In this document: positions 4,597 to 20,000 of the stretch, in pieces
Position numbering within the stretch: position 1 is the first letter of the stretch
Layout of the letters: the number at the start of each line of letters is the position of its first letter
Source of the DNA: an uncultured virus (IMG/VR IMGVR_UViG_3300027801_000017)
Lineage: Duplodnaviria; Heunggongvirae; Uroviricota; Caudoviricetes; Crassvirales
IMG/VR virus record: IMGVR_UViG_3300027801_000017
Reading direction: 5' to 3' (one strand)
DNA length: 20,000 nucleotides
Position numbers and translations under genes: made by a program
The notes under the pieces: generated by a model
What the model was told of the DNA's origin: nothing
The model's input: only the letters and a program-made list of their open reading frames with translations
Databases searched by the model: none

Positions 4597-7500
4597 ATGA
4601 ATGAAAAATTCTTAGAACTATATGAATATTTAAAATCTGAAGGAATCACTGACTTATCTCCTGAAGATTTCTATAACGCATATAAAGACCCCAATAAAGC
4701 AAAAGATGTTTATGACTTTGTTTCTAGTGAAGAAATGACGGATTTAAATGAGAATGACTTTTTCTCTGCTTATTTCGGAACTGAAGTAAAAAAAAAAGAC
4801 GATTCAGAAGTTGTTACAGATACCTCAGAAGTTGTTACAGATACTTCAGAAGTATCAGAATCCGAAGTCCTTTCTACAGGAGCTGACGAGACTAGCGAGA
4901 CTGAAGAAGCTGTTACGCCACCTATAAACTTTGATGAATTAACATATTTTGATTTTTCCTCAATAAATAGAGCAGTTAATGGGGTGGAATTTTCGGATGA
5001 TAATATAGGGCATCTTTCAGAATCAAAAGAAGAAGAATTATTAGATTTAAATATCAATCCTCATATTCAGTCTTTAGTATCTATAGGTGCGAATATGCCA
5101 GAGGATGCTAATGTTGCTGTGACAGAATTAAGTCCATCTGAGAAGAAAACGTATGATTTTAATTTTTCTAGATACCAGAAAGTACTTGATAATCAAAATA
5201 AAGTAAAAGAAGTTAATGTACAAAAAGGAACTAATACTGGACAGTATGGTTTTAATTTAGCAGATGCTTCGTTACCAGGTCTAATACCAAGTCTTGAAGG
5301 TTTTGGCCCTTTTGGTGGAGAGACAACCTACAATCCCGTACCAGGAGAAGATAATTATTCAAATGACCCTGAAGTTATTGCTAAAGCTAAAGTTATTTTA
5401 GATACAGACCTTCCTAGAGCAAGAAATAAAATTATTAGGATATTTAAGAATAAGAAAAAAAGCTATGGTTTACCTTCCGATATAACTACCGCTACTGATG
5501 AGCAGTTAGCAGAAGCTTTTAAGAAATTTAATAAAGAAAATACTTATGCTAAAACTGGGAAGTCTATAACCACTACTATGCCTATAAGCGGAGGAACTTC
5601 TACAGAGCCGACTTATGAAAAAGACTATATAAATATTAATAAGAAGTATTTAGAAAAAATATTTAATAATCAATTTCTAGTAGCAAAGAATAACGCTCAG
5701 ATAGAACTAGACAAAAAGGTAGATGAAGAAAAAAGAACAGCGATTCAAAATGCAGATTCTTCTATTTTATCTAGAGATGTTATAGGTAAGAGAATATATG
5801 ATTTTCATAAAGACTATGATTATAATAATAATATGAGTACAGAGGAGCAAAGGTACTCAGATGCTGAAACTGTATTAGAAGGTCTGGAAGTTCAATTAAA
5901 AAAATTAACAGCAGAAGAAAAGACTCCAGATGATGAACTTATAACAGAATGGGAAAAAGCAAAAGCCGAACTTGCATCAGCTCAAAAAGGATTAGGGGAC
6001 GATATACATCCTTTATATGACCCACTTACTGGAGAGAGAACAGATAAACTTGAAGGGGCTTTAGACTTAACTGAGCAAATAAAAAGACATGAAAAAGATG
6101 CTTTAACTTTTAAAGGAAATATAAAAAATAGATACGTAACGGTATCTAATAGAGAAGAAGACCATAGGATAATGGGGGGTCTCATGACAAGAGATTTAAT
6201 AGTTAAAGACCCTCGTAGGTGGCAGAAAAGAGCTAATCAAGAAGGATTTATAATAGAGCCCTCTGATGATGGGAAAAGCTTTATAATAAAAGGAGTCCCA
6301 TTAAGTAAAATCGGGTTGTATACTAGTGATATTTTAAATAAAGAGGTAAAAAATGAAGCAGAAGAGTGGAATGATAAAAATGCAGAGAATATAGCTTCTA
6401 GAAAAGTTTGGATGAAGATGGCTTTAACAAATATAGACCCAGGTAAGGTTGATAAAAGTAAGACCGCTAGATTTTTTGAGGTTCTTGCTGGAGATGGAGC
6501 TTTGGCGGCTAGTTTTGGAATGTCTGACCAAAAGTTTGTTGATTTCTCTGTAGATGAATTTACAAAGGCAGGTATTCCTTTATCCCCATCTCTAATTAAG
6601 AATATGAAAAGAACATGGGGAATGGAGCTAACTGAACAGGGTGCTGGTTTTCTTCCTATAGCAGCTCAAATGTGGTTAGGTAATAAAGTTTTAGGGGCTG
6701 TGGGTTTTGCAGGGTGGCTTAAAAATACAGTACAGGGATTAAATACAGCAAAGAAGTTTCAAAGGTGGAATAAGTTTAGAGGGTTTATCTTAGAGGCTAG
6801 TGTTGAGGAGGTAAAGATGCAAACTTATGGCTTTCATGATGGTACTGGATTTGGGTTTACTATGGCTGGCCGTTTTATGCCTGCTGCTGGGATATTTAAA
6901 TTTAAAGGGGAATTGGCTAGATTAAATACTGTAGGAAATGTGGTTTTTGATAGCGGATTGAAGGGTGCGTTTGCTTTAGAGTTTGCTGGTCATGTAGAGG
7001 CTATTGTTGAGGATGTAAAGGGAGGTTCAGCATATGGAACTTTTATGGAAGAACAATACCCTGATGTATCCACTGTTGGGAGAAGGGTAATTTTAAGTGG
7101 TGCTCTATTTTCTATCTATGGAGGTATGGGTCTATTTGGTAAAGGTAGGTCAGGTATGAATATTAAAAACATGGAGAGTGTTGTAAAGGAGTTAAAGCAA
7201 AAAGGATATAATGAGGAAGCTTTAAAAATACAAAAGAATGTAGATTTATATTATGAAGGTAAAAAGAAATTATCTAAAGAAGAGCAGGATATACTTACTG
7301 AGAATGAAAACGGAAAAGGAAAAGAATATAATACTGATTTAACAGAAGCAGAATTAAAGCAAAGGTTAAAAGATATGGGAGGCAGGGAAGTTAAACCTGA
7401 AGCTGAAGTTAAAGCAGAAGAAGTTAAAGCAGAAGAGGTAAAAGTAGAAGAGGTTAAAACAACTTCTGAAACAAGAGAAAGCTTAGAAAGAGAAGTGCAG

Positions 7501-10500
7501 AAAACATGGGAAGAGTTAGAAAACACCCCTGAAACTAAATTTAAAAAGAGAAGAGAACTTAATAAAAAGTTAGATGAGCTTATTCCAAAATATGAGAAAC
7601 TTGAAGCAGAGGTTAAACCTGAAGCTGAAGTTAAAGAAGTAGAAATACCGTCTTCTTACAATGAGAAGATGAAAGTTTATAAACAAAGTGATTTAGGAGG
7701 AGGTAAAGGAGGTAAGGTTAATGAAAAATCTGATTTAGTTAAAGAGGCTGAAACTCCAGAAGGTAAAGAATATGTAAAACAAGAAGTAGAAAAATTAGAA
7801 AAAAATGAAGATGGCACTATAACAGTTTATAGAGTAGGTAATCTAAATGAAGGTCATAATCCTACAACTACTAGTAAAAAGACGGCTGAGACGATAGCTA
7901 AAGAGAGAAAGGCTCAAGGATTAAGTTCTCAAATAATAGAAACTAATGTAAAAGCAGAAGATATATCTGTTGTTGTCCCTGGGGTAGAAGCTGAGATTTT
8001 CGTAAAGGTAACTAAAGAGAACCAAAGTAGGATTAATGAAAATAGTAATACTCTACAAGAAGGTCAATCATTAAAATCTTTACAACAAAGAATAAATGAA
8101 TTACAAAAAGATGTTGAGAAAACAGAAAAAGATTTAACAAGTGGAAAAATAAAAGGAGATATTTATACTAATAGTATAAAAAAGAAAAAGACGGAGATAA
8201 GTAATCTTGAAAAACAAATTAATAAAAAGAAGTCAGATTCTAAATCTGAAAAATTAACAAAGTTAAGAGAGGAAGCTGCGAAATCATTAAATTTTAAACC
8301 TGAAGTAAAAGAGGTGAAAGTAGAGGAAACTACTGGAAAGGAAGTGAAAGTAGAGGAAACTACTGGAAAGGAAGTGAAAGAACCTGAAAAAGAAGTGGTA
8401 GTACCTGAAAAAGAAGTGGTAGAAATATTATTAAATAAGAAAGATGGAGTATTTGCAGGTATATGGAATAGAGGTGGTTTTAGTGCAAGCAATAAAGCAG
8501 GGGATAAGGACGCTCATAGCGCCAATACACGAAAAGTACAAGAGAAATCAGAAGAATTACAAAAATTAGAATCTAATAATCCAAAAGTAAATGAAGGGGA
8601 GTTTAGTGTTTCTGGAACTTTTGAAGGTAGTGGTTATAGAGCTATTGTTGGAAAAGAAAGAGGGGAGTTATCAGATATTAGAGAGAAGGCATCTCAAACA
8701 GAGAAAATGTTTTTTAATGAGCAAACTCTTGAAAATGGAGATGTAGTATATTCTTTAATAAACGGAAAACATAGAGTTCGTAATAGAGAAGGTTATTATG
8801 CTGTAAATCTTACATATAAGAAGGGTACAGAAGTGAAGTTAAATGATGTAAAAAATCTTTTGACTACAAAAATGAATGATATAACCACTATTATTACAGG
8901 GGTAAAATCCACAGTTAAGCCTAAAGTAGAACCTAAAGTAGAGCCTACAGTAAAAGAAGTTACAGAAAGCATAGAAGAGGTTAAGGTTGAAGACAGTAAG
9001 AGCACCAATCCTTCATTTGAAAAAGGCAGTATGCGTAATTTTTCTGTAGACGGTGGAGTATTAGAAATAGGAAGGGTAAATAATGCAAGTTTATCGTCAA
9101 TTTTAAAATTAGAGGTTGAAAAAGACTCAAGAAGACAAGGCAAGGCTGAAGTGTTATTAAAACGAGCATTAAACGAAACTAAAGGGGAATTATCAGGACA
9201 AGCATCTAACGATGCTGCTGTAGCGTTAAATTACAAATTAGGTATGAGAGTAAATGGCAACGAAACCCTCTCCTTAAAAGAATCCCAAAGCGAAAGAGCT
9301 CAAAGTGCAGGAGAAAGTGTTAGTATGGTTTTACCTAAAAATAAAAGAGGTGATAATTACAAGCCTTTTAAAGTAGAGCCTACAGTTAAAGAAAAAGTTA
9401 TTGAACCTACAGTTGAACCTGAATATACTAAAAATAACATAATTAATATAAAAGACCCTACTGATGTATTAATACAGGCAAAACAAAAAAGAAAGTTAGC
9501 CAATCAGAAATACAATAAGATGAAAGACTCTCTAACTGAAAAACAAAAGAATCAATTTAGAGAAGAGTCTTTGAAAATAAATAACCTCATTAAAAATTTA
9601 GAAGCTGAGATAGTAGAAAAAGGAGTAACGGGAGAAAAAGGAGAAAAAGAAATACAGCAGTATGCAGATAAAGTCATAGAAGGATTAGAGTCCGCTAAAA
9701 AAACTTTAAAGGAGAGTGGATTAACTTATTCCTTTATCCTACCTGGGGTTAACGCTAAGACACTTTCCGTAGCTTTAGATATAGGGATAGCATCCGTTAA
9801 AGCTACAAAGTCTGCTGTTATTGGGTTAAATAAATTTAAGAATAGTATATTAACACAATTAAACATAAAAAAATTAACTAAAGCTCAAGAAAAACAACTT
9901 AATGATTTCTTTAATAGAAACTATGATTTATCTAAGCAAAAAGTTTTGAGTTATACTAGAGAGATTATAAAAGAAAATAAATTAGATAATGTAGATTCAT
10001 TTATAAAAGAAATGGAGTCAGACCCTATGTTTAAGAAGTATGATAAACAAGATTTAATATTATTGTATAATAATTCTATTAAAGGTAGTACGCTTCAACT
10101 TACCAACATTAAAGAAAAAACTGAAAACCTAAAAAAAGGATTCTTTAAAGGTAAGACTGAGGAGTATAAATTCACTAAACAATCCAAAATAGAAATGGAT
10201 AATGTGATTACAGAGTTTAATCAGTTTGTGGAAACATTAGACGGGAGTATTACCGCTAGTAAGGAGACTATGAGGATAATTGGTAATATTAAAAATAAAG
10301 AAACTTTACAGACAGCTATAAATAGAATAGAAGAGCTAATGTCTGATAAAAAAGTTGTAGAACAAGTGCAGGAAAAAGAGAATGTTATAAATAAAATAAC
10401 TTCTTTGACTAATATTAAAGAGGGTGAAGGAAAGGTAAAAAAATCTCTTAGTGGGGGAATAAATATTAATCCTACAACAAAATTAACAAAAGAACAGAGT

Positions 10501-13500
10501 GCAAAACTTTCTACTATAAATACCAAATTAGACAATATAAATAAAATAATTAAAGACGTAAGTAATAAAAAAACGGGTATTGAAAGTGAGATAAAATATT
10601 CTCAAGAGATGGTTAAGGTACTTGAAAGTATAGAAAGATATGAAACGTCAACAAGTGAGGGATTCGTTAGCGTCTCTAAAGGGGGTATCAAAAATGATAA
10701 ACAGTTAGAAAATGCATATTTAAGATTAGAAGAATTAGAATTTTATAATATATACAATTTAGAGGTTAAATCTGGAAACAACTCTTCTTTAACAAATCTG
10801 ATGACTAAAGTAGAGCAATTCCAAACTGAGGGTAAGTCATTATCCACTATACTTAGAAAAGAAAGAGCCATAGAAAAGGCAAAAATAAAAGAGGGGGCAG
10901 TAGTAGCTCTCAAGTGGGATGGGTCTAACTTTGCTAAGTGGTGGAAGAAAAAGTTTAAGACTAAAGAGACGTTTACAGAAGATTTTAACAAAGGAAGAAC
11001 ATGGTATGATGTGTCTGGAGAAAAATCACACTATAATATTATTAGGACTATAGACATGTTTAATAATAAGGATGGTAAGGGAGTGGATTATTACAAAAAG
11101 AATGTTTATGAATCTTATTTTGATGCCAATAGAAATAAAATGAAAGACGAGATGGCTCTTACAAATGAAATGAATGCGGAAATATCAAAGATTTATGGTA
11201 TTACAAAAGGGAAGGGGAATATATTCACAACAAAATCAACCTATATAACAGCAGAAGTAGGTGCGAAACTTACTGAGTTAGGTATCTCAAAAAAACAGCC
11301 TTTTACACAAATCAACTTTGAAGGAAAAACAGAGACAGTATTTAAAAGTGATTTTGGAATGTTAGAGTTATGGCTAATAGCAAAAAATCCTCTAGAGAAA
11401 GCTCCATTAGAGAGAATGGGATGGACTCCTGAAAAATTAAAAGACTTAGATAATCATTTAAGCCCTAAATTAAAAAAACTAGGAGAATTTATGATGGAAA
11501 AGTTAAACGGGGAAAGATATGATAAATATAGTGCTCGTTATCAGGAAAATAAGGGGATAGGCTTACCTAGGGAGGCAAGTGCTCCTTATTACTGGCCTAG
11601 GCGACCAGATGAGGCATGGTCTAATATAGGTAAATCAGAACCTTCTTGGGATAATTCAAGTTGGAATAATTTTTCTTCTACTATTCAAGTTGGTCATCAT
11701 AAATCAAGAACGAGTACTGCTCCTTTTAAATATGATAATGCTATAGCTACTTATATGGGTTATATAAATAAAATGGAACATTATCATCATTTCCAGAAAC
11801 CAGTTGAAATTTATTCCACTGTATTTAAAGACCCTGCTGTAAGACAATCGCTAAATAAAAATTTTGGAACGTCTTATACTCAAGCCATGGATAGGCATAT
11901 AGATAAAATGAAAGGAGAGTTCTCTGCGAAAGGTTGGGAGGTCTTTGATGCATTTTCATTGCAGTTTTCAAAGAACGTATTGTCTGCCAGCCCAGCTATT
12001 GCTGTAAAACAAGCAGCCTCTAGTGTGATATTTGCGTCTGTAACTCCTTTATCTTATACTATCAAATCCGCCCTATCAGGAGGGCAGTATGTAAAAAATA
12101 TAGATGCTAAAACAACTAGCGCTTATATGATGCGGAAATATAGGAGATATGAACTTGGTTATAATGAGCTTAGTCAGCAAAATATTTTCTTTAATGAAAG
12201 CTTTCTTGTTAAGAAATCAATTAAAGGGCAAGAAACATTCAATAGAGCTTTTGGTAGTAATGTTGATTTATCTAAACCTGCCCGCAAGTTTTCTTCATTT
12301 AACAAGAAGTATGTTGAACCTGCAGCTGGATTTCTTTCTCAACGTGGAGATAAGGTTGGAATGACTTGGTTAGGTCAGGGGTATTTAGATTATAAATATG
12401 ATTATTATGCTAGTCGTAAAAATGAGACTACAGGGAAATTGTATACTAAAAAAGAAGCTACAATTGAGGCGGTTAGAGATTATGAGATGCTTGCTCTTAG
12501 TACTCAGCAAACAGATATGGCTATGGAGACATCTAGGTGGAGACAAGATATGGGGTCGTTTGGTAAGCTTCTGACTACATTTACAACATCTATGTCTGCT
12601 GTACGAGAATTTACTGTCCTTAGTCAACAAGAAATGATTAACGGAAAAAATGTAAAGCAAAATGCTAAAAAAGTAGCTGTTTCTTCTGTACTTTTGGGAA
12701 CGATATTTGCTTTTTTAAATAATGGAACATTATCTGATGAAAAAGATGTTGCTTACGCTATAGCAAAAACTAATATTCAAGGATTTATGTTTGCAGGTAA
12801 AGTGATTGATAATATGAAAGGTATGGATAGATATAAGCCATCATCCCAAGTCCCTTTTGAGTCGCATGTCTACAAAATTAGGGGGTTATATTTAAATAAT
12901 AAGAAGAGTAATGATAAGTGGGAAAAACAGATAGATGACTACGCATTAGGTAAAATTAACCTCACAGAGAAGGAATTAAATGTGCTTCGTCTAGAGAATA
13001 AGCAGAGGAAAGATAAATACTTGAAGAGTCTAGGGTTAGAGTTATCAGTTTTCGGTTTACCTATTAGCTTAAAGAATATAAATAAAATTGCAACTAATGC
13101 GGAAAGTGCTTATTACAATGAGATGAAACTTCAACATTTAAATAAACAATTATTATTATTAACGAGCAAGAGCAAAGAGAACATCTCGGCTGAAGATATT
13201 GTAGAAACTAGTTTAGCAAAAAAAGTTTTACTTTTAAATCCCTCTAAATACCAAGAAGGAAAAACAGTGCTAGAATTATTTACGGGTCAAGAAAAACATC
13301 CAGATGAATGGTTTACATTAAGAAATACTTTAAATGATAACTGGGAGCAAGTGATGGCGATTGAAAAATTTAAGAAAAATAACGCTGAACCATACGATAC
13401 CGATAAATTTCTAGAATATTATATTTTAAATAAAAATTACAAAACATCAGAGGAAAAAATAAGAAAAGAACAGATGGAGCTTTTAAAAATTCTAGAATTA

Positions 13501-13590
13501 AGGGATATGAAGAATAAGGAAGAGAAGGAAGAGAAGGTAAACCCAGTAGAAGAGATGAGAAGGCAAAAAATATTAAAACCAGTTAAGTAG
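4597..13590 (+). CDS. Giant internal virion / polyvalent protein (2997 aa) with putative ADP-ribosyltransferase and GNAT domains
   Basis: 9-kb ORF. It has an acidic N-terminus and a Gly/Ala-rich hydrophobic region (~6480-7150). ART-like motifs VYR / TTTS / EAE lie at 7810-8010. GNAT motifs RRQGKA and 'NDAAVALNYKLG' lie at 9031-9252. K/E/V/P linkers separate these, followed by a long helical C-terminal region. Confidence 0.8.
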   Translation: MNEKFLELYEYLKSEGITDLSPEDFYNAYKDPNKAKDVYDFVSSEEMTDLNENDFFSAYFGTEVKKKDDSEVVTDTSEVVTDTSEVSESEVLSTGADETSETEEAVTPPINFDELTYFDFSSINRAVNGVEFSDDNIGHLSESKEEELLDLNINPHIQSLVSIGANMPEDANVAVTELSPSEKKTYDFNFSRYQKVLDNQNKVKEVNVQKGTNTGQYGFNLADASLPGLIPSLEGFGPFGGETTYNPVPGEDNYSNDPEVIAKAKVILDTDLPRARNKIIRIFKNKKKSYGLPSDITTATDEQLAEAFKKFNKENTYAKTGKSITTTMPISGGTSTEPTYEKDYININKKYLEKIFNNQFLVAKNNAQIELDKKVDEEKRTAIQNADSSILSRDVIGKRIYDFHKDYDYNNNMSTEEQRYSDAETVLEGLEVQLKKLTAEEKTPDDELITEWEKAKAELASAQKGLGDDIHPLYDPLTGERTDKLEGALDLTEQIKRHEKDALTFKGNIKNRYVTVSNREEDHRIMGGLMTRDLIVKDPRRWQKRANQEGFIIEPSDDGKSFIIKGVPLSKIGLYTSDILNKEVKNEAEEWNDKNAENIASRKVWMKMALTNIDPGKVDKSKTARFFEVLAGDGALAASFGMSDQKFVDFSVDEFTKAGIPLSPSLIKNMKRTWGMELTEQGAGFLPIAAQMWLGNKVLGAVGFAGWLKNTVQGLNTAKKFQRWNKFRGFILEASVEEVKMQTYGFHDGTGFGFTMAGRFMPAAGIFKFKGELARLNTVGNVVFDSGLKGAFALEFAGHVEAIVEDVKGGSAYGTFMEEQYPDVSTVGRRVILSGALFSIYGGMGLFGKGRSGMNIKNMESVVKELKQKGYNEEALKIQKNVDLYYEGKKKLSKEEQDILTENENGKGKEYNTDLTEAELKQRLKDMGGREVKPEAEVKAEEVKAEEVKVEEVKTTSETRESLEREVQKTWEELENTPETKFKKRRELNKKLDELIPKYEKLEAEVKPEAEVKEVEIPSSYNEKMKVYKQSDLGGGKGGKVNEKSDLVKEAETPEGKEYVKQEVEKLEKNEDGTITVYRVGNLNEGHNPTTTSKKTAETIAKERKAQGLSSQIIETNVKAEDISVVVPGVEAEIFVKVTKENQSRINENSNTLQEGQSLKSLQQRINELQKDVEKTEKDLTSGKIKGDIYTNSIKKKKTEISNLEKQINKKKSDSKSEKLTKLREEAAKSLNFKPEVKEVKVEETTGKEVKVEETTGKEVKEPEKEVVVPEKEVVEILLNKKDGVFAGIWNRGGFSASNKAGDKDAHSANTRKVQEKSEELQKLESNNPKVNEGEFSVSGTFEGSGYRAIVGKERGELSDIREKASQTEKMFFNEQTLENGDVVYSLINGKHRVRNREGYYAVNLTYKKGTEVKLNDVKNLLTTKMNDITTIITGVKSTVKPKVEPKVEPTVKEVTESIEEVKVEDSKSTNPSFEKGSMRNFSVDGGVLEIGRVNNASLSSILKLEVEKDSRRQGKAEVLLKRALNETKGELSGQASNDAAVALNYKLGMRVNGNETLSLKESQSERAQSAGESVSMVLPKNKRGDNYKPFKVEPTVKEKVIEPTVEPEYTKNNIINIKDPTDVLIQAKQKRKLANQKYNKMKDSLTEKQKNQFREESLKINNLIKNLEAEIVEKGVTGEKGEKEIQQYADKVIEGLESAKKTLKESGLTYSFILPGVNAKTLSVALDIGIASVKATKSAVIGLNKFKNSILTQLNIKKLTKAQEKQLNDFFNRNYDLSKQKVLSYTREIIKENKLDNVDSFIKEMESDPMFKKYDKQDLILLYNNSIKGSTLQLTNIKEKTENLKKGFFKGKTEEYKFTKQSKIEMDNVITEFNQFVETLDGSITASKETMRIIGNIKNKETLQTAINRIEELMSDKKVVEQVQEKENVINKITSLTNIKEGEGKVKKSLSGGININPTTKLTKEQSAKLSTINTKLDNINKIIKDVSNKKTGIESEIKYSQEMVKVLESIERYETSTSEGFVSVSKGGIKNDKQLENAYLRLEELEFYNIYNLEVKSGNNSSLTNLMTKVEQFQTEGKSLSTILRKERAIEKAKIKEGAVVALKWDGSNFAKWWKKKFKTKETFTEDFNKGRTWYDVSGEKSHYNIIRTIDMFNNKDGKGVDYYKKNVYESYFDANRNKMKDEMALTNEMNAEISKIYGITKGKGNIFTTKSTYITAEVGAKLTELGISKKQPFTQINFEGKTETVFKSDFGMLELWLIAKNPLEKAPLERMGWTPEKLKDLDNHLSPKLKKLGEFMMEKLNGERYDKYSARYQENKGIGLPREASAPYYWPRRPDEAWSNIGKSEPSWDNSSWNNFSSTIQVGHHKSRTSTAPFKYDNAIATYMGYINKMEHYHHFQKPVEIYSTVFKDPAVRQSLNKNFGTSYTQAMDRHIDKMKGEFSAKGWEVFDAFSLQFSKNVLSASPAIAVKQAASSVIFASVTPLSYTIKSALSGGQYVKNIDAKTTSAYMMRKYRRYELGYNELSQQNIFFNESFLVKKSIKGQETFNRAFGSNVDLSKPARKFSSFNKKYVEPAAGFLSQRGDKVGMTWLGQGYLDYKYDYYASRKNETTGKLYTKKEATIEAVRDYEMLALSTQQTDMAMETSRWRQDMGSFGKLLTTFTTSMSAVREFTVLSQQEMINGKNVKQNAKKVAVSSVLLGTIFAFLNNGTLSDEKDVAYAIAKTNIQGFMFAGKVIDNMKGMDRYKPSSQVPFESHVYKIRGLYLNNKKSNDKWEKQIDDYALGKINLTEKELNVLRLENKQRKDKYLKSLGLELSVFGLPISLKNINKIATNAESAYYNEMKLQHLNKQLLLLTSKSKENISAEDIVETSLAKKVLLLNPSKYQEGKTVLELFTGQEKHPDEWFTLRNTLNDNWEQVMAIEKFKKNNAEPYDTDKFLEYYILNKNYKTSEEKIRKEQMELLKILELRDMKNKEEKEEKVNPVEEMRRQKILKPVK
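4804..4853 (+). repeat. 21-bp in-frame tandem repeat (SEVVTDT x2 plus partial)
   Basis: tcagaagttgttacagatacc / tcagaagttgttacagatact / tcagaagt. Confidence 0.9.
7390..7636 (+). repeat. 25-bp exact direct repeat (7390-7414 and 7612-7636), encoding VKPEAEVK
   Basis: gttaaacctgaagctgaagttaaag occurs at both positions. The first copy is followed by degenerate 15-bp EEVKA units. Confidence 0.9.
8311..8422 (+). repeat. Tandem repeats: 30-bp unit (EVKVEETTGK) x2.3, then 21-bp unit (PEKEVVV) x2
   Basis: 8311-8340 and 8341-8370 differ at one base. acctgaaaaagaagtggtag occurs at 8382 and 8403. Confidence 0.9.
8934..9393 (+). repeat. Direct repeat flanking the GNAT module (8934-8958 and 9369-9393), encoding KVEPTVKE
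   Basis: taaagtagagcctacagt is exact over 18 bp and extends to 25 bp with one mismatch. Confidence 0.85.
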
Positions 13591-13636
13591 GGAAAGAAAT
13601 ACAAAAGCTAATTATAAACAAGTAAATTACTAGGTT

Positions 13637-13663
13637 AAATCAAGAAAATTTAGTATTTTTGTA
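13637..13663 (+). promoter_or_regulatory. Conserved intergenic motif copy 3 (AAATCAAGAAAATTTAGTATTTTTGTA); putative promoter
   Basis: Ungapped 23/27 match to copy 1. Contains TATTTTTG (13654-13661), matching TAnnTTTG. Lies in the largest intergenic gap, upstream of ATG 13686. Confidence 0.7.
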
Positions 13664-13685
13664 GAATTAAAAAAAATAAAAAATT

Positions 13686-14408
13686 ATGTCGTATACAGAT
13701 TATTTAGGACTAGGAATGGGAGGCCCTTCTATTTTAATGTCAGATGGAGATATTGCTCTTAATATTAGAGGATATGCTATTCAAGCATTAGAAACCTGCA
13801 CATTTGCACAATTTGATTTAGACCAAACGCCTGCTTGTGGAATTGAAAAGAAATTACAAATTACAGCTGTTACTATTGCTAGTGAAGAATTTACATTATC
13901 AGCAGCAGATGTAGCAACACTTAAAGTAGGAGATAAAGTTCTTTTGAATTGGGGGGGTGTAAATATACCTTTAGGTACTGTTAAGGATTCAGAGGGGAGA
14001 CCAACTGAATTTAAAGATAGCTCTATATATTTCATCAAAACTATTGACACTGCTAGTTATGAGGTTACTTTAGAAGAAACTTTAGGGGCTGGAGTGATTA
14101 CACTAGATGATGTTGGTGCTTTATATGGAGCAAATACTTGGATAGGAAAATTATCAGACCAAGATTATTCTTATGGAACATTCACAAGAAATGCTTCTGC
14201 TAATGATAAAACTCATGAGATTGCAGGGGCTGTAGATGGTCGTATATTTAGAACTGATGATGACTCAGGATTACAGGTAAATATGTTTGATACCACAGGT
14301 ACATCAACAGTAGGAGATGTCACTATAAAAGAAGGTATGACTGTATATCTTCCAGTAACAGATATTACACTTACTACTGGGGCTTGTATAGTTTATACTA
14401 GAAGGTAA
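13686..14408 (+). CDS. Beta-rich putative virion structural protein, 240 aa
   Basis: Thr/Gly/Asp-rich with an A-rich leader. The C-terminus 'TIKEGMTVYLPVTDITLTTGACIVY' and the internal 'LKVGDKV...YFIKTID...TLEETLGAGVITLDDVG' resemble beta-domains of phage tail/decoration proteins. Confidence 0.55.
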   Translation: MSYTDYLGLGMGGPSILMSDGDIALNIRGYAIQALETCTFAQFDLDQTPACGIEKKLQITAVTIASEEFTLSAADVATLKVGDKVLLNWGGVNIPLGTVKDSEGRPTEFKDSSIYFIKTIDTASYEVTLEETLGAGVITLDDVGALYGANTWIGKLSDQDYSYGTFTRNASANDKTHEIAGAVDGRIFRTDDDSGLQVNMFDTTGTSTVGDVTIKEGMTVYLPVTDITLTTGACIVYTRR

Positions 14409-14441
14409 GTATATGTCTTTATGCTTAGGATTAGATTTAAT

Positions 14442-15554
14442 ATGAAAAATATATTAATTGTGTTTTTAATGTGCTTGTCCTTTATCTCTAAAGGGCAATT
14501 TGATTATAGCACCTATCTTAAAGATTTTGATTTAAAGAGTAATTTAAAAAAGCATTTAAAGTTTTCCACTGTTTATGCAGCTGTTAATGGCGGTACATCT
14601 ATATATGACGTTAAAGCTTTTTCAGTTACAACAGGAATACTAGAAGAAGAGCTTATCAATACTCCTTACGATTACTCTATTACCCTAGGTATACGTAAGA
14701 TAGCTAGATTTGGTTACGAAAATAAAGCTAATACATTTTATGATGGTACTGAAACCTCTTGGTCAGATAATGCCACGATAGGTAAAGTAAGAGGGTTTGA
14801 GTACTTATTTGAAGTGGACTACTCTAGGCAACAAGGTATAAATTATATAGACCAACATCATTTTATTAGATACAGTTCAGATGATGATTGTGAAGGCCCT
14901 TTTTGTATAAACCACTTAGCAGCAAAGATAGAATACTTACAAGATGGCTTTGCAGATATAGAGTATTTTGAAGCATCAGAAAGATATAGATATAAAAAAG
15001 ATAAAAATTTAGCATTTAGTATAGGAGCCGTACAACGGCTTTCAGAGCCTTATGGGTATAACCCTCTAGAAGAGTGGTTGCTTTCAAATGGCAGCCTGCA
15101 TTATACGTATTTAGCTATAATGGAAGGATATACAGTAGATGTATATGCAAATGAATATAAAGACCCTAGCGGAAATGTAGTAGCTACTTCAGCTGAAGTT
15201 TGGGAAGAGGTAGTAATACCACAAGTTCTTTCTACCTATAGTGAAAAGAAAAGAAGTGAATTAAAAAATCAAATCCAACATTCTATAGTTATAGGTGCGG
15301 ACTATTATAAGTATACTAAAAAAACTTGGTTACATGCTTGGGCTAATTTAATGCCTTATCACTACGATGACGGAAATGAATTTTCCTACCACAAATACAA
15401 TGATAGTGAACAATGGTATGACTACTCAGGCGGTGTAATATATGGAGTGAAAGTTGATAAACATCTAGGTTATTTTGTAGAAGGAAAGTACAATAAGTAC
15501 TGGAACCGAGAATGGTATGATTTTAAATTAGGAATTAATTATATAATCTTTTAA
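14442..15554 (+). CDS. Signal-peptide-bearing outer-membrane beta-barrel protein (370 aa; start reassigned from 14421 to 14442)
   Basis: MKNILIVFLMCLSFISKG|Q is a Sec signal followed by Gln, as is typical in Bacteroidota. It has many amphipathic aromatic-rich strands and a C-terminal beta-signal-like 'FKLGINYIIF' ending in Phe. Confidence 0.75.
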   Translation: MKNILIVFLMCLSFISKGQFDYSTYLKDFDLKSNLKKHLKFSTVYAAVNGGTSIYDVKAFSVTTGILEEELINTPYDYSITLGIRKIARFGYENKANTFYDGTETSWSDNATIGKVRGFEYLFEVDYSRQQGINYIDQHHFIRYSSDDDCEGPFCINHLAAKIEYLQDGFADIEYFEASERYRYKKDKNLAFSIGAVQRLSEPYGYNPLEEWLLSNGSLHYTYLAIMEGYTVDVYANEYKDPSGNVVATSAEVWEEVVIPQVLSTYSEKKRSELKNQIQHSIVIGADYYKYTKKTWLHAWANLMPYHYDDGNEFSYHKYNDSEQWYDYSGGVIYGVKVDKHLGYFVEGKYNKYWNREWYDFKLGINYIIF

Positions 15555-15564
15555 ACATAAAAAA

Positions 15565-15729
15565 ATGAATTTTATAAACAGCTGGAAACAAGGAAATAAA
15601 CAAGCTAAGTATAATGTAGAAATAAGGATTGGGAGAATAACAGTATTAGAGATAAAAGTATGTCTATGTGGTATTAAGAAATGCTCTAAATTTAGATTTA
15701 TGGTCTTTAATTTTGGATTTGAATTATAA
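15565..15729 (+). CDS. Small basic hypothetical protein, 54 aa (not in the ORF track)
   Basis: MNFINSWKQGNKQAKYNVEIRIGRITVLEIKVCLCGIKKCSKFRFMVFNFGFEL*. It has an A-rich leader, fills the gap between genes, and its stop overlaps the next ATG (TAATG). Confidence 0.75.
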   Translation: MNFINSWKQGNKQAKYNVEIRIGRITVLEIKVCLCGIKKCSKFRFMVFNFGFEL

Positions 15730-16010
15730 TGGAAAAAGAACTAAGTGAAGATACGGCAGTCAAATTAAGTATAAAGACTTTAGGTGGAATAGCCACCTTA
15801 ATAACAATATTAGTAGGGATGTGGTTTACACTGCAAGCTGATATTACGGAAGCAAAAGAGTTGCCTGTTGCGCCAGCTCCTGATGTTACAAGAATGGAGT
15901 TTGATATGAAAGACAAAATGATTAGACAGACTATTATTACAACACAAGAAGATGTTAAGGAGATGCAAAAGACTCTTGAGAGAATAGAGGATAAACTTTA
16001 CGACAGATGA
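15729..16010 (+). CDS. Single-pass membrane protein with C-terminal coiled coil, 93 aa
   Basis: Hydrophobic 'LGGIATLITILVGMWFTL', a Pro-rich hinge and the heptad-like 'TQEDVKEMQKTLERIEDKLY'. Overlaps both neighbouring genes. Confidence 0.75.
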   Translation: MEKELSEDTAVKLSIKTLGGIATLITILVGMWFTLQADITEAKELPVAPAPDVTRMEFDMKDKMIRQTIITTQEDVKEMQKTLERIEDKLYDR

Positions 16011-16369
16011 AAGAAGATGGTATTACCTGGAGAGTGTTCGCTATATATTTAGGAATAATACTCTTGATGCTAATTGGAGGAGGTATTAAAGGACAGGTCA
16101 GTATATCAGTATTTAATGCAGAATGGAACGATGCTAATAAAGTAGATTGGGCATATGACCTTGAGGATGTTCAGACAGCCGCCTATATAGATGTGAGTAA
16201 AGACACAGAGTTGCAAAAGAAACATAAGATAGCGGTTATACCTACTATTATAATATTTAAAGATAATGTAGAGGTTGCTAGGTTTCAAGCTGATTTAAGT
16301 TTTAAGATGGTAGCAACAAGAGAAGAAGTGCAAGAAGAGATTGATAACCAATTAATGAGTGATTTTTAA
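16007..16369 (+). CDS. Exported/membrane-anchored thioredoxin-fold protein lacking CxxC, 120 aa
   Basis: N-terminal hydrophobic segment ending G|Q. 'VFNAEWNDAN' sits at the F.A.WCxxC position. 'YIDVSKDTELQKKHKIAVIPTIIIFKDNVEVARF' matches the thioredoxin C-terminal half with its cis-Pro. The protein contains no Cys. Confidence 0.75.
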   Translation: MKEDGITWRVFAIYLGIILLMLIGGGIKGQVSISVFNAEWNDANKVDWAYDLEDVQTAAYIDVSKDTELQKKHKIAVIPTIIIFKDNVEVARFQADLSFKMVATREEVQEEIDNQLMSDF

Positions 16370-16370
16370 G

Positions 16371-19274
16371 ATGAAAAGAATATTATTTATATTATTATTA
16401 CCACTAACTTTATTTGGACAAAAAGAAGTTATCATACATATTACTACCGATGCTTATCCGTTAGAAACTAAATGGACTTTATATAAAGATGCTTATCAGG
16501 GTGATACTATAGGGTATGTTCCGTATGGTCACTATACTCAGGCTAATACGTCTTACATGGATACGTTATATATACCAGACAGTATAGCTAATATTTCTTG
16601 GGCTATATGGGATGATTGGGGGGACGGAATGCCTGGTGGTAGTTATTATGTTTCTGTATGTAGTGATACTATAATAAGTTACCCTGTACCTACATTTACA
16701 AATGGATTAATACATAACAGAGTCATTCCTCAATGTATGCCAAACCCTCCTCCCTGTGTTCCAGCAACTGTTATAATAAATTTAGACCAATACCAAGGTG
16801 AGACTTCTTGGGATATTAAAGATACAAGTGGCTTTACTTATGCCTCTTCAGTGGCTTATAATGGGCATCCTGATTATGCTACAATAATAATACCAGTATG
16901 TATACCTAAAGGGCCTTTAGAATTTACTATATACGATACTTACGGAGATGGATTAAATGGAGCTTTATGGCAAGGACAAGATGGTTCTTACTATGTAGTA
17001 CAATGTAATGATACATTAATATATGGTACAAATCCTGCATTTGATTATGATACGTCACATGTATTTGTATCTGATTCTTGTCCTCCTATATTGGGATGTA
17101 TGGATATTAATTATGTAGAATTTAATCCTTTTTCAAATGTAGATGATGGTTCTTGCTCTATATTAAAAGTATTTGGATGTATTGATACGTCTATGTATAA
17201 TTTTAACCCTACAGCTAATACAATGAATATGATTGATAGTTGTGATTATACATTAGTATTACATGATTTGATGGGGAATGGATGGGTAGGGTCTTCTTTA
17301 AAAATATATGCTGATGATACTACCGAGTACTATAATACTGGTGGGTTTGATGATATTTATAATGTTAGTTTAAGAGCTCCAGCATTAATAGATATGCAAT
17401 TCTTTATTAGTGCTCAAGCTTCTTTAACAACAATAGAATGTGGATTTACTTTAATTAATCCAGAAGGAGATACATTAATAAGTATTCAACCTCCATTTAT
17501 ACAACCATTATTTGTTTATAGTGCAATAACAAATTGTGGCAACACTTGTATAGAAAAAGTATTTGGGTGTACAGATATATTGGCTGTTAATTACGATAAC
17601 TTGGCAAATACAGATAATAATACGTGTTACTATAATCCAGGTTGCTCTAATTCTTCTTTTTTAGAATATTACACTCAAGGATTTGTAGCTGATTATAATG
17701 ATGGAAGTTGTTTAACTCAAGCCGTTTGGGGATGTATAGATAGTTCGGCTTTTAATTACGATTCCCTAGCTAATCTAGATAATGGTGGATGTGTACCTAT
17801 TGTAATAGGGTGCATGCAACCTTTGGCTTTTAACTATAATCCTCAAGCTAATACGCCTGCTACTTGTGTGGCCATAGTATATGGTTGTATGAGCCAAATA
17901 GCTTTCAATTACGACCCATTAGCAAATGTAGATGATGGTTCTTGCATTGCAATTGTACTTGGTTGTACAAATTCAAATGCCTTTAACTATAATCCTTTGG
18001 CAAACGTAAATAACGGTTCATGTATTGCTATTGTTTATGGGTGTATGAATGCTACGATGTTTAATTATAATCCGCAAGCAAATACAAGTAATGGTTCATG
18101 TATTCCTTATGTTTATGGATGTACAGATAATACTGCTTTCAATTATAATCCACTAGCCAACGCTAGTAATAGTAGTTGTATTCCATTTATCTATGGCTGT
18201 ACTGACCCAACTGCATTGAACTACGACCCACTAGCAAATACTAATGATAATTCCTGTATGCCTTATATTTATGGCTGTACTGATTCTACAATGTTTAATT
18301 ATGACCCTTTAGCTAATAGTGATAATAATACATGTATTGAGTTTATTTATGGATGTACGAATCCTATAGCATTAAATTATAATCCTTTAGCTAATACTGA
18401 TAATTTCTCTTGCATTATCCCTATATATGGATGTATGGATAGTTTAGCATTTAATTACAATCCTTTAGCTAATGTTGATAATGGAAGCTGTGTACCTATT
18501 ATATTAGGATGTACTGACCCTATCGCCTTAAACTATTGTGATTCATGTAATACGGATGATTTTTCCTGTATATTACCAATATATGGATGCACAGATAGTA
18601 TAATGTTTAACTTTAATCCTTTAGCCAATGTTGATAATAATACTTGCATCCCTTATATTTATGGTTGTACTGACCCTACCGCTCTTAACTATAACTCCAA
18701 TGCCAATACAGAAGATTTTACTTGTCTACCTTATATGTACGGTTGTACCGATAGTACTGCTCTTAATTATGATTCAACAGCTAATACTGATAATGGTTCG
18801 TGTGTGGCTGTGGTTGAAGGGTGTATGGATGCGAGTGCTTGGAATTATGAACCGTTAGCCAACACTCATGATAGTATTACATGCTTATACGATGCAGGAT
18901 GTGTGGGGGAGACTGGAACCCCTTATTGGTTAAATGACCCTTGCTATGCTTGGGTTATTGAAGTGGATGAATATTGTTGTGAAAACGAATGGGACACTAT
19001 ATGTCAATTAACATATAATCATTGTGCAGTCGGTTTGCCAGAAGATGTGCAGTTAATGAAAAGAGGTTATAATATAAAATTATATCCTAATCCAACTAAC
19101 AGCATAGTTCATATAAATAATTTTGTAGACATACAAGTTTATGATAGAATTGGAAGGTTAATTATAAGTGGTAAGGGTAATTTTGTAGATTTATCTGATT
19201 ACAGTGATGGTGTTTATAATATTATAACTATATTTGAAGGAAAGAAAAATAATTTTAAAATTATAAAAAATTAA
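16371..19274 (+). CDS. Secreted Cys-rich repeat protein with T9SS type A C-terminal sorting domain (967 aa; start reassigned from GTG 16359 to ATG 16371)
   Basis: Signal peptide MKRILFILLLPLTLFG|Q, N-terminal 'D.(W/Y)GDG' beta-domains, 19 GC(T/M)D..A.NY.P.AN.D.GSC repeats, and a 'V..VD.YCC...WD..C' module. The C-terminus 'IKLYPNPT...IQVYDRIGR...DLSDYSDGVY...FKIIKN' has the YPNP, YD..G, G.Y and K..K motifs of the Por secretion tail. Confidence 0.88.
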   Translation: MKRILFILLLPLTLFGQKEVIIHITTDAYPLETKWTLYKDAYQGDTIGYVPYGHYTQANTSYMDTLYIPDSIANISWAIWDDWGDGMPGGSYYVSVCSDTIISYPVPTFTNGLIHNRVIPQCMPNPPPCVPATVIINLDQYQGETSWDIKDTSGFTYASSVAYNGHPDYATIIIPVCIPKGPLEFTIYDTYGDGLNGALWQGQDGSYYVVQCNDTLIYGTNPAFDYDTSHVFVSDSCPPILGCMDINYVEFNPFSNVDDGSCSILKVFGCIDTSMYNFNPTANTMNMIDSCDYTLVLHDLMGNGWVGSSLKIYADDTTEYYNTGGFDDIYNVSLRAPALIDMQFFISAQASLTTIECGFTLINPEGDTLISIQPPFIQPLFVYSAITNCGNTCIEKVFGCTDILAVNYDNLANTDNNTCYYNPGCSNSSFLEYYTQGFVADYNDGSCLTQAVWGCIDSSAFNYDSLANLDNGGCVPIVIGCMQPLAFNYNPQANTPATCVAIVYGCMSQIAFNYDPLANVDDGSCIAIVLGCTNSNAFNYNPLANVNNGSCIAIVYGCMNATMFNYNPQANTSNGSCIPYVYGCTDNTAFNYNPLANASNSSCIPFIYGCTDPTALNYDPLANTNDNSCMPYIYGCTDSTMFNYDPLANSDNNTCIEFIYGCTNPIALNYNPLANTDNFSCIIPIYGCMDSLAFNYNPLANVDNGSCVPIILGCTDPIALNYCDSCNTDDFSCILPIYGCTDSIMFNFNPLANVDNNTCIPYIYGCTDPTALNYNSNANTEDFTCLPYMYGCTDSTALNYDSTANTDNGSCVAVVEGCMDASAWNYEPLANTHDSITCLYDAGCVGETGTPYWLNDPCYAWVIEVDEYCCENEWDTICQLTYNHCAVGLPEDVQLMKRGYNIKLYPNPTNSIVHINNFVDIQVYDRIGRLIISGKGNFVDLSDYSDGVYNIITIFEGKKNNFKIIKN
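17559..18884 (+). repeat. Intragenic tandem array of 17 degenerate ~78-bp (26-aa) Cys-bracketed repeats; two more copies at ~17088-17243
   Basis: Counted in the translation from VFGCTDILAVNY to VEGCMDASAWNY...TC. DNA copies are diverged at synonymous sites. Confidence 0.92.
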
Positions 19275-19277
19275 ACT

Positions 19278-20000
19278 TTGAAATGGTTAGGACAACATAT
19301 TGTAGATTTCATTGCACGCTTTAGAAGTGATGTCTATTTAGAAGATTTAACTACAGATTCATCTACAGATATTCTTGTAGTTGATACAGATGGTAAGATA
19401 TGTAAAAATTCTGGTGCTGGTGATGATACAAGGTTTACTCTAACAGCAGACAGTGGTGTTAACCAAGTTATAGCAGATGGAAATACTTTAGATATAGCTG
19501 GGGGTAATGCGATAACTACAGTAGTTAGTGCTACTGATACTGTAACTATTAATCACAGTGATACATCTACCTTAGTAGATATAGATAATTCTGGTAATAC
19601 TGTTATACAAGATATAGGTTTTGATACATATGGGCATGTTACTTCCCTAGGAACAGCAGACATTCAATCTGTAGAAACTGCTAATAATGCTACATCAGCA
19701 GAATCAGCTGGAGTTGCGACTAATGTTACAGCATCAGCAAATAATACAGCAGATGAAACAGTATACCCAACTTTTGTAGATGGAGCAACTGGGACTCAAG
19801 GAATAGAAACAGATACAGGGTTAACATATAATCCAGGTACAAATATATTATCATCAGTCAATTTTGAAGGAGCATTAGATGGTGATGCAAGTGGAAGTTC
19901 TGGAAGTTGTACAGGTAACGCAGCAACTGCAACGGCTTTAGCTACATCTAGAAATTTTCAAGCAGATTTAGCTAGTACATCAACAGCTGGTTTTACTGGT
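19278..20000 (+). CDS. Tail fibre-like structural protein, N-terminal part (TTG start, runs off the window; not in the ORF track)
   Basis: 241 open codons: MKWLGQHIVDFIARFRSDVYLEDL...FTLTADSGVNQVIADGNTLDIAGG...FDTYGHVTS...TGNAATATALATSRNF. The sequence is Thr/Ala/Gly/Asp-rich with motifs typical of phage fibre shafts. Confidence 0.75.
   Translation, partial: MKWLGQHIVDFIARFRSDVYLEDLTTDSSTDILVVDTDGKICKNSGAGDDTRFTLTADSGVNQVIADGNTLDIAGGNAITTVVSATDTVTINHSDTSTLVDIDNSGNTVIQDIGFDTYGHVTSLGTADIQSVETANNATSAESAGVATNVTASANNTADETVYPTFVDGATGTQGIETDTGLTYNPGTNILSSVNFEGALDGDASGSSGSCTGNAATATALATSRNFQADLASTSTAGFTG

Follow-up and report, generated by a model that had tools for sequence, protein, structure and literature searches.

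Why would a tailed phage keep, among its late genes, a tightly packed row of genes whose products are addressed to the layers of a bacterial envelope? The question is posed by a 20,000-nucleotide stretch of DNA (the window) from the uncultured Crassvirales virus IMGVR_UViG_3300027801_000017 in IMG/VR, a one-strand late region with a G+C content of ~33% in which five open reading frames (ORFs), all on the + strand, fill positions 14442-19274. An original prediction, made from the letters of the window, had taken the five genes for a single system that remodels the surface of the infected cell through the host's Sec, BAM and type IX secretion (T9SS) machineries. The analysis presented here leads to a different division: two modules, namely a lysis-linked trio (an outer-membrane barrel, an inner-membrane helix protein and a thioredoxin-fold periplasmic protein) and a separate cargo, rather than one five-part secretion machine, and we would give this division about an even chance. 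Specifically, the trio is read, tentatively, as a means of disrupting the outer membrane at lysis. The features in question are:

14442..15554, +: predicted outer-membrane beta-barrel protein, 370 aa (structure model, signal peptide, C-terminal beta-signal)
15565..15729, +: conserved small peptide, 54 aa (homologues in viral loci)
15729..16010, +: bitopic inner-membrane helix protein, 93 aa (one transmembrane helix; homologues)
16007..16369, +: Cys-less thioredoxin-fold periplasmic protein, 120 aa (weak thioredoxin matches; homologues)
16371..19274, +: Cys-rich repeat cargo with Sec and T9SS addresses, 967 aa (leader, repeats, C-terminal sorting domain)
19080..19271, +: type A T9SS C-terminal sorting domain (CTD), cargo residues 904-967 (PF18962, TIGR04183)

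The five co-oriented genes follow one another, in gene order, with a 10-nt gap, TAATG, ATGA and a 1-nt gap. These junctions agree in every detail with the first description. The program-made ORF list begins two of them earlier (at 14421 and 16359), and the homologues start at the MK... codons that the original prediction had used. Four of the five products carry an export or membrane signal, the 54-aa peptide being the exception, and they are predicted to reach different layers, as had been proposed: the helix protein the inner membrane, the thioredoxin-fold protein the periplasm and the barrel the outer membrane, with the cargo bearing a Sec signal and a type A CTD.

The trio and the cargo are separable

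Searches of IMG/VR gave 433 confirmed relatives of the barrel and 85 of the thioredoxin-fold protein, and 80 loci from each were combined into a set of 160 (139 non-redundant). Among these 160 loci, tblastn found the barrel in 148, the helix protein in 149, the thioredoxin-fold protein in 148, the cargo in 139 and the peptide in 45, so that each cassette gene, with homologues in 45 to 149 viral loci, is real and not a chance ORF. The fibre-like gene that follows the cassette was found in 35 of the loci, a 2997-aa gene that precedes it in 2 and the four leftmost genes of the window in none. The original expectation that the cassette recurs in other viral contigs was borne out for its four larger genes, which occur together in 85 of the 139 non-redundant relatives. 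Two gene orders are seen, either barrel-(peptide)-helix protein-thioredoxin-cargo or helix protein-thioredoxin-cargo-barrel-(peptide). The helix-protein and thioredoxin genes form the tight unit: in 123 of 125 relatives no more than 60 nt separate them. The thioredoxin and cargo genes can be up to 3.1 kb apart, with inserts between them.

The separation is clearest in a distant branch of the barrel family (80 loci, 31-44% identical to the close group), which was annotated with hidden Markov models built from the close relatives. Used singly as queries against IMG/VR, the distant barrels P0200 and P0141 gave no match; an alignment of distant members did. All three trio genes are present in 66 of these 80 loci and the C-terminal region of the cargo in 14; because the branch keeps the trio at this rate with so few cargoes, the trio is separable from the cargo.

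The trio also appears to be confined to phages. In a scan of one genome per species, covering 185,579 species and made with a narrower barrel alignment, the ordinary chromosomal operon that would have pointed to a cellular origin was looked for and none was found. The scan returned seven barrel loci, all in metagenome-assembled genomes (MAGs); the trio is present in six, and the contig of the other one ends within the locus. The labels of these seven MAGs (Parvibaculum, Sphingobacteriales, Winogradskyella, Flavobacteriales, Nitrosopelagicus, Rickettsiales and 'uncultured') are diverse, and we read the loci as mis-binned phage contigs and the trio as phage-only. Three trio-bearing genomes have portal proteins with 31-33% identity to the portal of the relative G003, and a fourth has one with 23%. 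A trio-bearing record of 155 kb has two tail-sheath matches and no portal match; because of these sheath matches, the trio is taken to cross morphotypes, from crAss-like to sheath-bearing phages. No description of the trio was found in the literature searched by full text, a search that most subscription journals lie outside of.

Lysis genes near the trio in relatives

To lyse a two-membrane host, a phage needs, besides its holin and endolysin, an outer-membrane step. Of the 66 trio loci in the distant branch, 34 have a gene for a holin or an M15 endolysin no farther than 1.5 kb from the thioredoxin gene; in 16 the distance is at most 100 nt. The endolysin is identified by PF08291 Peptidase_M15_3 (E 2.5e-17) and phrog_894, the holin by phrog_3427. 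Locus L184 has the genes in one run with 4-nt overlaps:

8416-8694: helix protein
8697-9038: thioredoxin-fold protein
9035-9532: endolysin
9529-9906: holin

Because the trio of the distant branch stands in one run with endolysin and holin, and no convincing lipoprotein o-spanin candidate accompanies it, it would fill the outer-membrane step there. Screening for lipoboxes, in a form that picks up lambda Rz1 and Bor, gave no o-spanin candidate in the window and, in 3 of 40 distant loci, candidates of which none is convincing. Among close relatives, the cargo and other genes stand between the trio and the lysis genes. The 67-kb, 99%-complete genome G003 shows such an order: terminase, portal, further genes, a 2249-aa ORF, a 3872-aa ORF, a virion protein and the barrel; then a small barrel-like protein, an HNH nuclease, the peptide, the helix protein, the thioredoxin-fold protein, a protein with two transmembrane helices and the cargo; and finally a 76-aa ORF, a holin (phrog_3427, E 8.6e-31), three small ORFs and an M15-like protein.

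From these arrangements we favour a model in which the trio belongs to the lysis apparatus and most likely acts in its last step, when the outer membrane would be broken or detached after holin and endolysin have acted. The helix protein, a type II inner-membrane protein with a short helical periplasmic domain, would take the place of the i-spanin, the barrel would serve as the outer-membrane anchor in the place of the o-spanin, and the redox-dead thioredoxin fold would be the periplasmic connector. In the lineage of the window, the cargo would have been inserted between the trio and the lysis genes; it would be exported by Sec and then handed, through its type A CTD, to the type IX secretion system of the host. 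It is from adjacency that we infer the role in lysis and the contacts among barrel, helix protein and thioredoxin-fold protein. In Kongari et al. 2018 (PMC6139136), Bacteroides phage B124-14 and Croceibacter phages are counted among those without spanins, and an outer-membrane protein is named as something that could serve as o-spanin.

Several points weigh against a role in lysis. Adjacency amounts to guilt by association, and it is incomplete: 26 of the 66 distant trio loci have no nearby lysis gene, 13 of them with at least 3 kb of room. Of the 147 loci from close relatives, 1 has a lysis gene at 1.5 kb or less from the thioredoxin gene and 49 further ones have it within 5 kb (50 of 147 in all); in 26 it is farther away, and in the remaining 71, of which 35 are short of room, none was found. 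There is no lysis gene within the window, where the cassette is followed by the fibre-like gene and then by the window end. The lipobox screen is a crude regular expression, the first version of which missed lambda Rz1. The proteins themselves also depart from expectation. The periplasmic part of the helix protein, at ~58 residues, is much shorter than lambda Rz; neither this part nor the thioredoxin fold has Cys, and most two-component spanins use disulfides (PMC6139136). The trio is conserved far above the usual level of spanins (68% and 61% mean column identity for the two small proteins), which could point to binding of a conserved host target.

With these points taken into account, outer-membrane disruption at lysis is a possibility that we hold with more doubt than confidence, and the same reserve attaches to its wider form, in which the trio would join spanins and disruptins as a third class of phage device for disrupting the outer membrane: a three-part bridge across the envelope, whose integral barrel replaces the lipoprotein o-spanin. 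Such a device would be confined to Bacteroidota phages, would occur in lineages of both podovirus and myovirus type and would be represented by thousands of ocean genotypes. The value of the trio lies in offering a concrete, very abundant and strongly conserved candidate for the outer-membrane step of lysis by Bacteroidota phages.

The proteins of the trio

The 370-aa protein is, as modelled, a generic outer-membrane barrel of 12-14 strands. Its leader has a hydrophobic stretch at residues 4-20 and a Gln at +1 (Q19) that is invariant in 18 of 18 sequences, and it ends in a beta-signal (...GINYIIF) whose terminal motif is conserved in the family. The most conserved motif of the family, RKIARFGYENKANTFYDGTE, spans residues 85-104, and near-invariant polar residues include E120, S281, H298, D327 and E347, among others. 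The AlphaFold2 model (mean predicted local distance difference test score, pLDDT, 73.5) has ~14 strands and a helical insertion at 208-273. In VIA-align it resembles Tsx best (Z 15.4, root-mean-square deviation 3.8, 200 residues aligned), followed by EstA and KdgM (both 14.0) and NanC (13.9), with OMPLA (Z 11.4), LpxR (Z 10.8) and PagL (Z 8.0) farther down; sequence identity is at most 14% across the 50 listed chains. Foldseek likewise returns generic outer-membrane barrels, at template-modelling (TM) scores of at most 0.37. PorV and PorP/SprF are not among the Foldseek and VIA-align matches listed, an absence that does not exclude them.

No match to the barrel was found in Pfam, PHROG or NCBIfam, nor among GenBank phages, and 35 family members searched at E<=0.1 gave no Pfam family apart from five single matches at chance level. 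A lead from a language-model atlas to PF24653 (cyanophage outer-membrane-protein-like barrel, 0.92) was set aside, as Pfam did not confirm it. The family is large all the same: at E<=0.001 and 90% identity it falls into 3542 clusters, and at 50% identity there are 305 representatives. The best 120 of the 3542 clusters come from ENA, JGI and Tara, five of them also from NCBI and one from NCBI alone; their longest contig is ~90 kb, and none has a Pfam domain. In BFVD, which has many porin- and autotransporter-like barrels from uncultured phages, the best match of the model is A0A516LKJ4 (E 7e-22, 22% identity, TM 0.55-0.59), so at least one member of the family stands, unannotated, in UniProt. 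Six barrels (P0034, P0048, P0065, P0084, P0098 and P0115) have, in place of a plain leader, a lipoprotein-like one, ...(I/L)(I/A/V)SC..PKKCC(A/S/G)Q, which the cargo homologues L073, L108 and L136 share; in phages with such leaders, barrel and cargo may both be lipid-anchored.

The helix protein has a hydrophobic N-terminal stretch (residues 13-29) with one transmembrane helix at ~16-35, on whose N-terminal side K12 and K16 suggest an orientation with the N-terminus inside and the C-terminus outside. The helix is followed by a Pro-rich linker and a conserved C-terminal part, ~58 aa being periplasmic, and this C-terminal part, judged by eye, is probably helical. Homologues in 149 of 160 loci, a mean column identity of 68% in a 43-sequence alignment and a stop codon that overlaps the thioredoxin start (ATGA) accompany family matches that are weak (phrog_1009, E 0.005).

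The thioredoxin-fold protein has a leader with a hydrophobic stretch at 11-27 and predicted cleavage before Q30, a Gln found in at least 90% of 42 sequences. Its likeness to thioredoxins is faint: PF00085 gives 19.8 bits (below the cut-off of 23.5), TIGR01068 an E of 1.3e-4, and PDB thioredoxins match the exported protein with a best E of 5.4e-4. In place of the CGPC site stands NDAN (WNDAN), with N41 and N44 invariant in 42 sequences and no Cys in the protein; the last 45 residues, ending in MSDF, are almost invariant, and mean column identity is 61%. Neither this protein nor the barrel has a match in 50,697 GenBank phage records. A three-chain complex prediction made with alignments, in which barrel and thioredoxin-fold protein entered in mature form and the helix protein as its periplasmic part, yielded no verdict either way (score 0.00, controls not run).

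Gln at +1 of leaders is a trait of Bacteroidota (PMC5837995), and it is noted for Porphyromonas phage proteins (PMC10367356). The window phage, a marine one, is taken to infect Bacteroidota, probably Flavobacteriia.

The 54-aa peptide accompanies the trio in some of the loci. It has a net charge of +7, 3 Cys and no export signal, and its conserved ends are NWINSWxxGNKK (N-terminal) and RFxxLNFGFE (C-terminal). Homologues were found in 45 of 160 related and 28 of 80 distant loci, at varying positions relative to the trio, and many of them have a conserved Cys cluster; Pfam, PHROG and NCBIfam gave no family match.

Further small proteins are seen near the trio. A 78-aa two-helix protein travels with it in many loci, and it is also accompanied by a tail-anchored helical protein of 77 aa and a small barrel-like one of 136 aa; none has a family match. 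In some distant loci (L220, 9799-10125; also L221-L223 and L240) a 108-aa paralogue of the helix protein (phrog_20984, function unknown) directly precedes the endolysin. G003 holds the following:

4840-5076, 5721-5954 and 6598-7008 (G003, locus L162), -: small membrane proteins, no family match

The cargo protein

The cargo begins with the leader MKRILFILLLPLTLFG|QKE (residues 1-19, hydrophobic maximum at 6-22), continues with three beta-sandwiches (~20-390) and a repeat region (~454-840) and ends with a conserved Cys-rich module and the type A CTD. It has 55 Cys and ~15 copies of a 26-aa repeat, GCxDxxAxNYxxxANxDxxSC. An AlphaFold2 model of residues 20-420 (pLDDT 70.7) shows the three beta-sandwiches, which Foldseek likens, at low TM scores, to C2, LG and galectin-like modules. 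No catalytic family was found in profile searches, PDB sequences gave no informative match, and the language-model atlas yielded nothing informative for the N-terminal part (best 0.89).

The type A tail claimed in the original prediction holds up in the profile check, above both cut-offs though at threshold on the whole protein: PF18962 gives 27.2 bits for the whole protein and 30.1 for the last 150 aa (cut-off 27), TIGR04183 23.9 and 27.3 (cut-off 23). This tail is present in 15 of 95 homologous C-termini, the window's included; the other 80 have a 42-aa short tail, ITDLLGRP...LFYIYDDGTVEKK, which resembles the last strands of the CTD alone. Secretion of the cargo by the T9SS is suggested by its signals. 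Among the 94 homologues of at most 1200 aa, nearly all have, by eye, a typical leader followed by Q, and their N-terminal modules differ. Large leaderless proteins of relatives carry the Cys repeat too, as does one virion protein of Synechococcus phage S-CAM3. We considered and rejected the idea that the exported proteins are parts of the virion, given their cleavable Sec leaders and the 55 Cys of the cargo against 0 in the neighbouring 2997-aa protein. The cargo is a separate, variable, adhesin-like passenger of a kind already reported.

Alternative explanations

T9SS cargoes of type B pair with PorP/SprF barrels, and the five genes might be a single Sec/BAM/T9SS system for surface remodelling, as originally predicted. 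The cargo would then be exported or displayed with the help of the barrel and the periplasmic proteins, and the outcome would be exclusion, adhesion or a jammed T9SS. The tight packing of five co-oriented genes, the joint presence of barrel, helix protein, thioredoxin-fold protein and cargo in 85 of 139 non-redundant relatives and the signal peptide and type A CTD of the cargo all fit, and a protein with 55 Cys could need a periplasmic folding helper. The unity of the five, however, does not survive the wider comparison: in the distant branch the trio persists without cargo (66 versus 14 of 80), abutting endolysin and holin, and elsewhere inserts of up to 3.1 kb part the thioredoxin gene from that of the cargo. 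A canonical CTD is found in 15 of 95 cargo homologues alone, and the barrel finds no Pfam match in 35 members at E<=0.1, its fold resembling Tsx, NanC, KdgM and autotransporters. We regard the single system as highly improbable; a five-part T9SS machine over-unifies the locus, in which the cargo is a separate passenger and not the centre.

Phages also guard or time the envelope without lysing it, as T4 does with Imm and Sp and T5 with Llp in superinfection exclusion, or T4 with the periplasmic antiholin RI acting on a one-helix holin. A trio of this non-lytic type, devoted to superinfection exclusion, receptor masking or control of lysis timing, would suit periplasmic and membrane proteins that adjoin holin genes, and very high conservation is what binding of a conserved host or phage target would produce; fibre-like genes are neighbours in the lineage of the window, and a separate holin is already present. 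Exclusion genes, on the other hand, are usually early, and the trio, judged by its position (no promoter signal was found), sits in a late operon. Moreover, known exclusion and antiholin mechanisms need no integral outer-membrane barrel, and no homology to their proteins appears in Pfam, PHROG or NCBIfam, which makes a guard or timer unlikely, though well worth keeping in mind. A further account would make the barrel a stand-alone protein, either a Tsx-like channel for nucleosides or nutrients or a lipid hydrolase like OMPLA, PagL or LpxR, with the small proteins as accessories. Tsx as best match (Z 15.4), the listing of OMPLA, LpxR and PagL, the near-invariant E120, S281, H298, D327 and E347 and the commonness of phage porin-like barrels in BFVD speak for it. 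Yet matches at no more than 14% identity across 50 listed chains are generic for 12-strand barrels, and a metabolic channel leaves both the strict coupling of the barrel to helix protein and thioredoxin and the lysis-gene context unexplained; we consider this account quite improbable.

Assembly and strain variation

Five public runs from two studies contain 76-92% of the sampled words of the window, and one of these bridging runs may be its source sample. At ~14440, a 6365-nt contig of run X1 spans 13000-14715 with zero differences, linking the upstream 240-aa gene to the barrel, and a 524-nt contig of run X3 spans 13947-14470. The joint at ~19275 is bridged by contigs of X1 (18926-19385), X2 (18951-19317) and X5 (18997-19411). 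A chimeric assembly at ~14440 or ~19275, the error that could have created the cassette artificially, is thereby ruled out, as contigs from two studies bridge both joints.

The same data reveal variation. Run X5 holds a variant with 715 extra letters exactly at 14439-14441, before the start of the barrel, and in G003 the genes for barrel and helix protein have an HNH nuclease gene (phrog_452) between them; insertions seem to concentrate at the borders of the trio. Summed contig depth, a poor measure, rises ~10- to 30-fold over the conserved parts of the barrel, helix-protein and thioredoxin genes, which fits many co-occurring genotypes with common segments of the trio. Between 17900 and 18900, many contig joints skip 107 to 481 letters within the 26-aa Cys-repeat array of the cargo, reflecting either variation in repeat number among strains or collapse in assembly.

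The phage and the genes around the cassette

Judged by its hallmark virion proteins and gene layout, the window phage is crAss-like. Its upstream genes encode a muzzle protein, a short-tail-fibre-like protein (phrog_12032), two proteins without known family and the 2997-aa ORF. The C-terminal domain of the muzzle protein scores 34.9 bits against PF25729 (cut-off 27), with phrog_14478 at E 1.6e-43; the closest cultured counterparts, of Cellulophaga phages phi38:1 and Calle, are ~31% identical, and five near-complete relatives gave no match to it. The portal of G003 is ~30% identical to portals of crAss-like gut phages. The 2997-aa ORF (4597-13590, 0 Cys, no family match), at whose place G003 has ORFs of 3872 and 2249 aa, may be a virion-packed giant protein typical of crAss-like phages. 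The immediate neighbours of the cassette are:

13686..14408, +: upstream 240-aa gene (context; homologue in 1 of 160 related loci)
19278..20000, +: start of the fibre-like gene, which runs past the window end (context; phrog_34255, tail fibre DNA match)

The original prediction had placed the cassette between a structural gene and a tail-fibre-like gene. The downstream half of this claim has partial support: the ORF matches phrog_34255 (E 5.4e-9), a family of unknown function, and 142 nt of its DNA are 69.7% identical to a gene annotated as tail fibre in Flavobacterium phage immuto. The upstream half could not be confirmed, as the 240-aa gene has no match in Pfam, PHROG or NCBIfam. Scans of 13400-20000 for sigma-70-type promoters and terminators stayed at or below shuffle expectation, and the Bacteroidota -7 motif TAnnTTTG occurs in 31 copies against 27 expected, so that no transcription unit can be defined from these scans; one copy, at 13654, is intergenic and precedes the 240-aa gene. 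For crAss-like phages, PMC10136315 describes structural and lysis genes in one late transcription unit.

Comparison with known systems

The cargo has a clear precedent. The original prediction had been aware of no characterised phage system of this composition, a view that is outdated for the T9SS cargo, since a phage-encoded type A cargo has been published for 'Cryophage' (Bellas et al. 2020, PMC7468147). In both cases the product of a phage gene has a signal peptide together with a sorting domain of type A, varies among related phages and is presumed to hijack the T9SS; the Cryophage cargoes are enzymes and a PA14 protein, whereas the window cargo is a Cys-repeat, beta-sandwich protein with no enzyme domain, and most of its homologues, unlike the Cryophage case, have no recognisable CTD. 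T9SS cargoes with cognate barrels (the PorV shuttle, or PorP/SprF with a type B CTD) resemble the locus in that a barrel adjoins a cargo in a Bacteroidota context; they differ in that the CTD here is of type A and the barrel has no Pfam match and occurs without cargo.

The members of the trio can be set beside known families in the same way. With the thioredoxin family (PF00085), the periplasmic protein agrees in sequence weakly, though consistently, along its C-terminal half, cis-Pro motif (IPT) included; here, CxxC is replaced by NxxN in all 42 sequences, the protein is addressed to the periplasm, and a C-terminal extension ends in MSDF. Disruptin gp28 of phage phiKT, a spanin-less podophage, represents an alternative way of disrupting the outer membrane (Holt et al. 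2019, preprint, 10.1101/515445). At 56 aa it is similar in size to the 54-aa peptide of the window (+7), and both are cationic; the likeness ends there, and the peptide is missing from most trio loci and variable in position. The closest functional parallel of the proposed lysis-linked trio would be the spanins of the lambda Rz/Rz1 type. With these, as described in PMC6139136, the trio shares lysis-gene neighbours in relatives, translationally coupled genes, an outer-membrane partner and an inner-membrane protein whose N-terminal transmembrane helix precedes a periplasmic part that is probably helical as well. It differs in that the partner is an integral beta-barrel, that a thioredoxin-fold protein enters as third component, that the small proteins have no periplasmic Cys, that the periplasmic helix is much shorter, and that there is no similarity in sequence.

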